A stretch of DNA of 64,000 bases, taken from sequence record PQ382034.1; one strand, written 5' to 3'. Each line of letters begins with the position of its first letter. The stretch's first letter is position 1. Under the pieces are notes generated by a model. It saw only the letters and a program-made list of their open reading frames with translations. It did no database searches and had not been told where the DNA came from. This document shows positions 14,996 to 15,072 of this stretch, in pieces. Made by a program: the position numbers and the translations under genes. Origin of the DNA: Acinetobacter phage vB_AbaSI_3.

Positions 14996-15072
14996 TGCTT
15001 TACAAAATTTTGATGTTATAATGGTTCTACCGGTTCACCGCTCTAATTATATCTATTCGGTCGGAGAAGATA
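14996..15072 (+). promoter_or_regulatory. copy 1 of a ~77-bp repeated promoter-like cassette (MotA-box-like TGCTTTA at 14995-15001, extended -10 TGTTATAAT at 15013-15021) plus conserved leader
   Basis: near-identical (2 mismatches) to the reverse complement of 53348..53424. Confidence 0.5.

Follow-up and report, generated by a model that had tools for sequence, protein, structure and literature searches.

The origins of replication of phage T4 have eluded definition for decades. Five of them are active early, of which oriE, oriF and oriG lie at points of strand switch and skew shift and oriA and oriC do not; they have no motif in common, and at oriF and oriG ~100 bp suffices, comprising a MotA-dependent promoter and an A+T-rich unwinding element in which the transcript persists as an R-loop (PMC3016281). 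In the T4 record (NC_000866), oriF lies on the same strand where gene 25 meets uvsY and is primed by the uvsY transcript, oriG lies antisense within gene 34, oriE lies antisense within gene 5, and oriA lies at gene 56. A second group of repeated promoter modules, the promoter early stem-loops (PeSLs), are short and numerous, consist of a stem-loop, an early promoter, a Shine-Dalgarno (SD) sequence and an ATG, and occupy hyperplastic regions, where they flank indels between close relatives (PMC2839356, PMC4122927). Here we analyze a 64,000-nt stretch of the genome of Acinetobacter phage vB_AbaSI_3 (PQ382034.1; hereafter, the window) that carries two nearly identical copies of a promoter-like element in inverted orientation. 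We show that both arms of this 78-bp repeat belong to a five-copy family of modules, each a promoter plus leader, found in Acinetobacter T4-like phages, and we propose, at a little short of even confidence, that the modules are oriF-type, transcription-primed replication origins consisting of a promoter and an unwinding element.

A repeat search of the window paired positions 14996–15073 (+; copy 1) with 53349–53426 (−; copy 2), two 78-nt arms that are 97% complementary (76/78 matching) and have 38,275 nt between them. When both strands are read, the arms differ at C15003 versus T and at T15016 versus G, which bears out an earlier note, made from the sequence, that had reported an inverted, near-identical pair with two differences. 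The strongest remaining inverted repeats in the window reach only 48 nt at 81%, and the pair is therefore far beyond chance. Each arm consists of TGCTTTA, 11 bp, TGnTATAAT, and then an identical 51-nt stretch, and further downstream both copies contain TAGATGTATCTGATATATC (15160–15178 and 53317–53335; an inverted repeat of 29 nt, 90%), the shared motif that the note had also recorded. The window is ~99% identical to the Acinetobacter phages AM101 and MD-2021a (Straboviridae, Twarogvirinae, Lazarusvirus). Because the element is present in 51 independently sequenced phage records, at five places in nearly all of them, we reject the explanation that the repeat is an assembly artefact.

The two-copy duplication described in the earlier note is thus real as a pair but is part of a larger family: a 96-nt query found 260 places in the 51 records, with three further members per genome beyond the two in the window, and all members stand at fixed syntenic sites. 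We named the copies c1 to c5, window copies 1 and 2 being c1 and c2. In AM101, c3 lies at 16.2 kb (+) between orf027, which is next to srd, and a macro-domain phosphatase; c4 at 47.1 kb (−) among small open reading frames (ORFs) between the two halves of a split DNA polymerase gene; c1 at 81.0 kb (+) in the gene 3/2 gap; c2 at 119.3 kb (−) between gene 25 and uvsY.-2; and c5 at 150.2 kb (−) between gene 34 and rnh. Copies c2, c4 and c5 aim into genes, whereas c1 and c3 (hereafter, the orphan copies) aim against their neighbours, lack an ORF and are closed by hairpin terminators. The same loci with their flanks are kept in 47 GenBank records for c1, 47 for c3, 37 for c4 and 51 for c5.

This arrangement extends to diverged lineages. 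In AbTZA1 (Hadassahvirus) all five sites and their orientations are conserved, and related modules occur at c1, c2, c3 and c5, the sites that could be read, both in an IMG/VR contig whose gp25 is 83% identical and in a 169,947-bp contig that was taken as Acj9. Phage Ac42 has modules at c1, c2, c3 and c4 and none in its 84-bp rnh/34 gap. In every lineage examined the orphan copies keep a promoter, a non-coding stretch and a terminator. No repeat common to the c1 and c2 sites was found in the non-Acinetobacter T4-like phages examined, and the literature searched contained no mention of the sequence or of a repeat family in Acinetobacter T4-like phages. Even if the modules should turn out not to be origins, they form a conserved and undescribed non-coding system that includes two units resembling small RNAs.

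Several details of the records and sites accompany these distributions. In KARL-1 (NC_049441), the one record with six places that we looked into, the sixth arises because the two ends of the record overlap by 116 bp within c3; with these 116 bp present at both ends, the record length is overstated and the repeat count is one too high. The AbTZA1 record (NC_049445) is linearised inside c4. In both AM101 (43.7–49.4 kb) and Ac42 (46.8–52.0 kb), small ORFs separate the two halves of the DNA polymerase gene, 43A and 43B; c4 lies inside the insert, which in AM101 also contains a MobE-type HNH endonuclease. Acj9 has two tandem module copies at both the gene 25 site (c2) and the gene 3/2 site (c1), and each of its promoters has two TATAAT-like hexamers 11 bp apart, so that the one next to the leader could be part of the transcript. 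The Acj9 c3 locus was turned up by an IMG/VR pattern scan with CATATAATGGKTCMAC, a pattern of low specificity.

The fixed positions bear directly on the interpretation offered in the earlier note, that the element is a mobile promoter plus stem-loop cassette that mediated rearrangement at two sites lying exactly where gene content departs from T4. A PeSL-type cassette of promoter and terminator, or its promoter-middle variant (PmSL), whose recombining copies shuffle, delete or invert segments, would then be the cause of the differences from T4 at both sites. The modules do share with PeSLs a repeated promoter module, copies that recombine and an occasional upstream inverted repeat (PMC2839356, PMC4122927), and a TGCTT box has been described in the PmSLs of phage nt-1 (PMC4122927). 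Sequence exchange among copies, the part of the mobile-cassette idea that stood, is seen in the concertedly evolving leader and in KARL-1, where c3 holds a c4-type variable part, and Acj9 has its tandem duplicates at two sites. Inverted repeats or palindromes stand just 5' of some copies: c2 has the palindrome GATCAAAATTTGATC (53457–53471, −), 2 bases past the end of gene 25, together with TATAAGCA (53433–53440, −), an imperfect inverted partner of TGCTTTA just before the box, and c3 and c4 have a 9-bp inverted repeat, GTAAAGCAC..GTGCTTTAC, whose right arm is the box. Copy c1 has none, and no terminator was called among these upstream stem-loops.

Against these likenesses, the family has only five copies at sites that are syntenic across Lazarusvirus, Hadassahvirus, Acj9, Ac42 and the IMG/VR lineage, rather than dozens in hyperplastic regions, and we found no rearrangement associated with them; the extra place in KARL-1 reflects its record ends. 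PeSLs end in an SD sequence and start codon, but c1 and c3 have no SD, ATG or ORF, and in c2 the ATG of the downstream ORF lies ~130 nt past the −10. The conserved transcribed leader of at least 50 nt is likewise foreign to PeSLs (PMC4122927). Gene order in the window, 57-1-3-[copy 1]-2-4-53-5 ... uvsW-(small ORFs)-[copy 2]-25-26-51-27, is collinear with T4; at copy 1 the order 1-3-2-4-53-5 is that of T4 and only the intergenic gap is longer, and the 38-kb segment flanked by the inverted copies has kept its orientation and is collinear with T4, AM101 and AbTZA1. The ORFs adjoining c2 and c4 are unchanged between AM101 and AbTZA1. At copy 2, part of the earlier claim survives, in that uvsY and uvsY.-1 are missing beside it, but T4 has a MotA promoter of its own, oriF, at that spot, and in both Ac42 and phage 133 this leader drives uvsY; the c2 promoter is therefore ancestral rather than an agent of change. 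We consider a mobile cassette that caused the differences from T4 very unlikely.

The promoters of the modules resemble T4 middle promoters, which depend on MotA and AsiA and in which the MotA box lies 12±1 bp from the −10 (PMC2988021). The resemblance lies in the TGCTTTA box, an excellent −10 with TGn, the lack of a −35, and the presence of MotA and AsiA genes, which we found in AM101, AbTZA1, KARL-1 and Ac42. As the earlier note had read it, copy 1 has a MotA-box-like TGCTTTA at 14996–15002 (+; ctgTGCTTTAc) and an extended −10 with a perfect TATAAT at 15014–15022 (TGtTATAAT), and copy 2 has the corresponding elements on the minus strand at 53420–53426 (attTGCTTTAt) and 53400–53408 (TGgTATAAT); the boxes agree with the MotA consensus (a/t)(a/t)(a/t)TGCTTtA. 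Neither window copy has a sigma-70 −35 hexamer, and for this reason a sigma-70 consensus scan calls neither. This is the type of the T4 oriF and oriG promoters, TGCTTCA-N13-TGnTATAAT. Upstream of copy 1 an UP-element-like A/T tract with a TGATCA motif, AAAATTTGATCA, occupies 14965–14976 (+), and a related motif stands before most copies.

The four box-bearing copies, c1 to c4, all have TGn before the −10 and 14 bp between TGCTTTA and TATAAT, a spacing that differs from the 13 bp of oriF and oriG and from that of T4 middle promoters at large (PMC2988021). Two further differences from the latter are that the box is rare in AM101, where T4-type box and −10 combinations match at only 9 places in the whole genome, 4 of them c1 to c4, and that c5 has an early-type promoter, TTTACA-N17-TATAAT, a form common to ~38 other early promoters of AM101. 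The rarity of T4-type matches suggests that the AM101 MotA homologue may recognise a different box or spacing. From these sequences, we predict that the modules are strong, active promoters of the classes named. The ~38 early promoters of AM101, mostly on the minus strand, read gTTTAC(A/T)-N17-TATAAT and have a conserved initial transcribed motif, (a/g)g(t/c)(t/c)ctatcaaat.

In the origin mechanism that we propose, RNA polymerase would start at the module promoter, and the transcript would stay annealed as an R-loop in the A+T-rich unwinding element and prime replication in the manner of oriF and oriG. An ancestral uvsY origin module would have been copied to further sites, the copies would have been homogenised because origins are recombination-prone, and near-even spacing would be under selection since the genome is then copied faster. 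Beyond the promoter itself, the modules resemble oriF and oriG in having A+T-rich, easily melted DNA within ~100 bp downstream. Copy c2 lies exactly at the position of T4 oriF, directly after gene 25 (53473–53871, −; baseplate wedge), on the same strand, and in Ac42 and phage 133 the transcript of the module at this place is the uvsY mRNA, as in T4. Copy c5 lies beside gene 34 and has the direction of oriG, and the orphan copies recall oriG and oriE, whose transcripts are likewise antisense or non-coding. The family also matches the division of the T4 origins into oriE, oriF and oriG on the one hand and oriA and oriC on the other, in that strand-switch points and cumulative-skew minima coincide with c1, c2 and c5, and a long early block encloses c3 and c4; GC and AT skew, which track the direction of transcription, do not discriminate between the explanations of c3 and c4. 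Genes are present for the T4 pathway proteins MotA, AsiA, RNase H, gp59, Dda, UvsW, gp41 and gp61.

The copies are also regularly spaced. In AM101 the gaps between the five are 30.9, 33.8, 38.3, 30.9 and 32.5 kb, a spacing of ~33 kb round the genome, and a minimum gap this large has P = 2.5e-5 for five random points on a circle and P = 3e-5 to 6e-5 when positions are drawn from 133 low-stability regions, 45 early-type promoters or 213 TATAAT sites. The four sites of Ac42 leave gaps of 31.8, 35.5, 35.3 and 65.1 kb, and the c5 of other lineages falls near the middle of the 65.1-kb gap. Even spacing is predicted by none of the purely transcriptional explanations. Moreover, each of the five copies has, within +1 to +180 nt of its predicted start, a 60-bp window that is among the least stable 0.4–1.5% of the genome.

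Several observations weigh against this interpretation. The spacing statistic was chosen after the positions had been seen. Low duplex stability is not specific to the modules, there being 133 comparable regions genome-wide, mostly intergenic, and the balance of RNA:DNA against DNA:DNA stability as computed with nearest-neighbour values, is only in the top 1–9% and is not diagnostic. Exact synteny with a T4 origin holds for c2 alone: the oriG position is ~2 kb from c5, oriE is ~3.5 kb from c1, oriA is ~6.6 kb (in gene terms) from c3, which is oppositely oriented, and c4 has no T4 counterpart. Copies c2, c4 and c5 also sit where downstream genes need a promoter, the 14-bp box spacing is outside the T4 range, T4-type MotA promoters are otherwise rare in AM101, and the similarity to the T4 oriF and oriG leaders, a shared ATAGAG..AACAA, is not significant (p = 0.2). 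The main weakness is the leader itself. The T4 mechanism needs no specific leader (PMC3016281), and a simple R-loop model therefore leaves the conservation of its first 32 nt within a genome unexplained.

The leader occupies 15023–15073 (+) in copy 1, where it reads GGTTCTACCGGTTCACCGCTCTAATTATATCTATTCGGTCGGAGAAGATAG, and is identical in copy 2 (53349–53399, −). Across lineages it keeps one design: a G start, pyrimidine-rich short repeats (GGTTCTACC/GGTTCACC; TATCCCC three times; CACCCC), a G cluster with ...GA(A/G)GATAG..., and then A+T-rich DNA full of TAGATG and GATA/TATC motifs. The easily melted A+T-rich segment that completes each module is ~60–100 bp long. The evolution of the leader is concerted. 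The first 32 nt past the −10 are 97–100% identical among the five AM101 copies but only 85–94% identical between AM101 copies and their AbTZA1 orthologues, whereas the region 5' of the −10 keeps orthology, and in AbTZA1 homogenisation ends sharply at the leader. T4 origins have no common sequence, unlike the modules with their ~50-nt leader near-identical within a genome, and nothing described for T4 combines a leader that is shared and evolves in concert with a defined copy number and regular spacing. In ColE1 RNA II and the mitochondrial light-strand promoter with its conserved sequence blocks, both transcript-primed origins, conserved blocks likewise lie downstream of the promoter. By analogy only, and with no homology found, such blocks, including a G cluster, ahead of the transition from RNA to DNA would rationalise a conserved leader at an R-loop origin.

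A conserved transcribed leader could also be an RNA-level signal. Under this alternative, the modules would define a shared 5' untranslated region (UTR) regulon plus two small RNA genes, the signal being, for example, a site bound by a phage or host protein, or a hairpin in which a pyrimidine-rich anti-SD pairs with a purine-rich SD. The mRNAs from c2 (the uvsY.-2 operon), c4 (ORFs leading to the polymerase half 43B) and c5 (rnh-dsbA-33-59-32) would be co-regulated, and the c1 and c3 RNAs, of ~170–205 nt with the same 5' end, would act as decoys or regulators. The family is indeed defined by its transcribed leader and not by its promoter, c5 being early and c1 to c4 MotA-type; a leader that evolves in concert while the promoter regions keep orthology is expected from co-evolution with one trans-acting factor; and c1 and c3, with a promoter, no ORF and an intrinsic terminator, look like small RNA genes. 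The Ac42 leader is a genuine 5' UTR, with the uvsY SD in its G-rich part, and by eye there are lineage-specific complementary changes in the C-rich and G-rich parts (UAUCU/AGAUA, CCUAU/AUAGG, CUAUCUA/UAGAUAG). Predicted RNA structure does not favour this explanation: folds of 19 leaders from four lineages are no stabler than shuffles (z −2.8 to +1.0, mostly near 0), and searches against Rfam 15 returned only tRNAs at the gathering score in the window and nothing credible at E ≤ 10 around either copy. Several lineages have two or three leader types within one genome, the number of tandem-repeat units in c1 ranges from ~2 to 6 among near-identical phages, and neither the near-even spacing nor the placement of c5 in the one large gap of Ac42 is explained. 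We regard a regulon of this kind as rather unlikely.

The modules could instead be ordinary strong promoters with an ancestral uvsY-type leader, alike only by gene conversion, the orphan copies being relics and the spacing a coincidence. Recombination is very active in T4-type phages, promoters are abundant, with the ~38 other strong early promoters in AM101, and the leader start, GGTTCTA, resembles the initial transcribed sequence of those early promoters. However, the orphan copies persist at two sites with an intact −10 and terminator in lineages whose gp25 is only 65–83% identical, a divergence at which neutral intergenic DNA would have decayed, and this weakens the reading of them as relics. 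The spacing retains P ~3e-5 under several nulls, and the sharp end of homogenisation at the leader in AbTZA1 is not accounted for. Such a neutral history therefore seems quite improbable to us.

Candidate functions for the leader and its surroundings were tried and rejected. An 89-amino-acid (aa) ORF at 15021–15290 begins inside the −10 and runs into gene 2 antisense, the frame of the copy 2 leader stops after 22 codons, and the AbTZA1 c1, c2 and c5 leaders have a 1-nt deletion; the reading frame is not conserved, and we dropped the idea of a protein-coding leader. Bar-like two-codon mini-ORFs (ATG ATA TAG and similar) occur in the Lazarusvirus and Hadassahvirus copies, are not kept in Acj9 or the IMG/VR lineage, and are better explained as a decayed uvsY start. 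The boxA of lambda is CGCTCTTA, and a lookalike, CGCTCTAA, was considered as a boxA/nut-like antitermination signal and dropped, as it is not conserved in other lineages. For the tandem array that follows copy 1, a ToxI-like antitoxin repeat RNA was rejected because of unit length, sequence and the lack of an Rfam match.

The ancestry of the leader is suggested by its relatives at the gene 25 site. Directly after gene 25, both Ac42 and phage 133 have a leader of this design that leads into the SD and ATG of uvsY. The module leader is homologous to the Ac42 uvsY promoter and 5' UTR: the 5' UTR is collinear with the window copies from the −10 through GGTTC..CC/GGTTC..C.., TTC.GG and GAAGATAG, and in AbTZA1 the stretch after the c2 leader, which corresponds to the A+T-rich TAGATGTATCTGATATATC stretch of copy 2, matches the Ac42 uvsY SD, ATG and first five codons at 22/27 positions (p = 0.01, with 16 comparisons made), which suggests an alignment to the uvsY start. 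From the collinear leader and this alignment, the family appears to consist of copies of the region that spans the uvsY promoter, 5' UTR and start. The gene itself was not found: UvsY had no tblastn match in AM101, AbTZA1 or the window, and in AM101 and AbTZA1 no homologues of UvsX and UvsY were found by tblastn (best E-values 0.14 and 0.69), whereas Ac42 has both. To judge from these comparisons, the uvsY promoter region has outlived the uvsY gene in this phage, a further difference from the setting of T4 oriF. A T4-like phage without the UvsX/UvsY pair is unusual, which may bear on its replication, and AM101, AbTZA1 and Ac42 all encode a DprA-like recombination mediator.

Together with the origin reading, this ancestry leads us to a more specific and more doubtful possibility: that Acinetobacter T4-like phages have a sequence-defined origin set of four to five copies of the uvsY-promoter module ~33 kb apart, the fifth having been added in mid-gap in lineages without uvsY at its usual site. 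As the whole genomes of AM101 and AbTZA1 were searched and appear to lack UvsX and UvsY, these phages may lean on origin firing over UvsX/UvsY recombination-dependent replication. If true, this would be the first T4-type system whose origins have a recognisable common motif, and the question of what makes a T4-type origin would become directly testable; five near-identical, evenly spaced oriF-equivalent modules, of which two have no coding function, would offer a clean way to study how origins are defined. Lazarusvirus and Hadassahvirus are the main T4-like phages in therapeutic use against Acinetobacter baumannii, and for this reason their replication strategy and the apparent lack of UvsX and UvsY are of practical interest.

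In the window, copy 1 lies between gene 3 (14381–14950, −; tail completion) and gene 2 (15233–16072, −; DNA end protector), both on the opposite strand, and aims at the 3' end of gene 2. It forms a non-coding unit of ~205 nt that ends, abutting the gene 2 stop codon, in an intrinsic terminator (15202–15227, or 15202–15237 at its widest extent, +) with a 10-bp stem, 6 GC pairs and a T-rich tail. Between leader and terminator, an 18-bp unit, ATAGATGTATCAGATGAT, is repeated 6.1 times at 15070–15177 (+), an A+T-rich array that has the lowest duplex stability and overlaps the end motif shared with copy 2 (15160–15178, +). The unit holds TGATA..TATCA dyads and repeated ATG-NNN-TAG mini-frames, and the array is a fast-changing variable-number tandem repeat, with ~2 units in AM101 and ~1.5 in AbTZA1. 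Its predicted fold has z −6.75, since the repeat unit is internally palindromic. Like T4 oriE, copy 1 has direct repeats, and it lies in the gene 3-2-4-53-5 neighbourhood, near the oriE position, but oriE is inside gene 5, and copy 1 lies in the gene 3/2 gap in the opposite orientation; the repeats of copy 1 are head-to-tail, variable in number and absent from the other four copies.

Downstream of copy 2, the first gene (53100–53278, −; SD and ATG at 53265–53278) encodes a 55-aa DUF2685 protein, the uvsY.-2 homologue. A second small repeat family in the window consists of AAAAAGGGAGCCAnnTGGCTCCCTTTTT hairpins, which resemble bidirectional terminators (48574–48621, 63256–63303 and 45757–45785); a hairpin of this type also closes the orphan copy c3 in AM101 (16330–16360). 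Finally, a tRNA cluster at 9146–12297 includes a tRNA with anticodon CUA (12223–12297, −), of amber-suppressor type, which ARAGORN labels 'Pyl' and the AbTZA1 annotation calls tRNA-Sup-CTA; in AM101, AbTZA1 and Ac42 the same cluster has a small ORF annotated as an 'RF-1 domain peptide chain release factor'.

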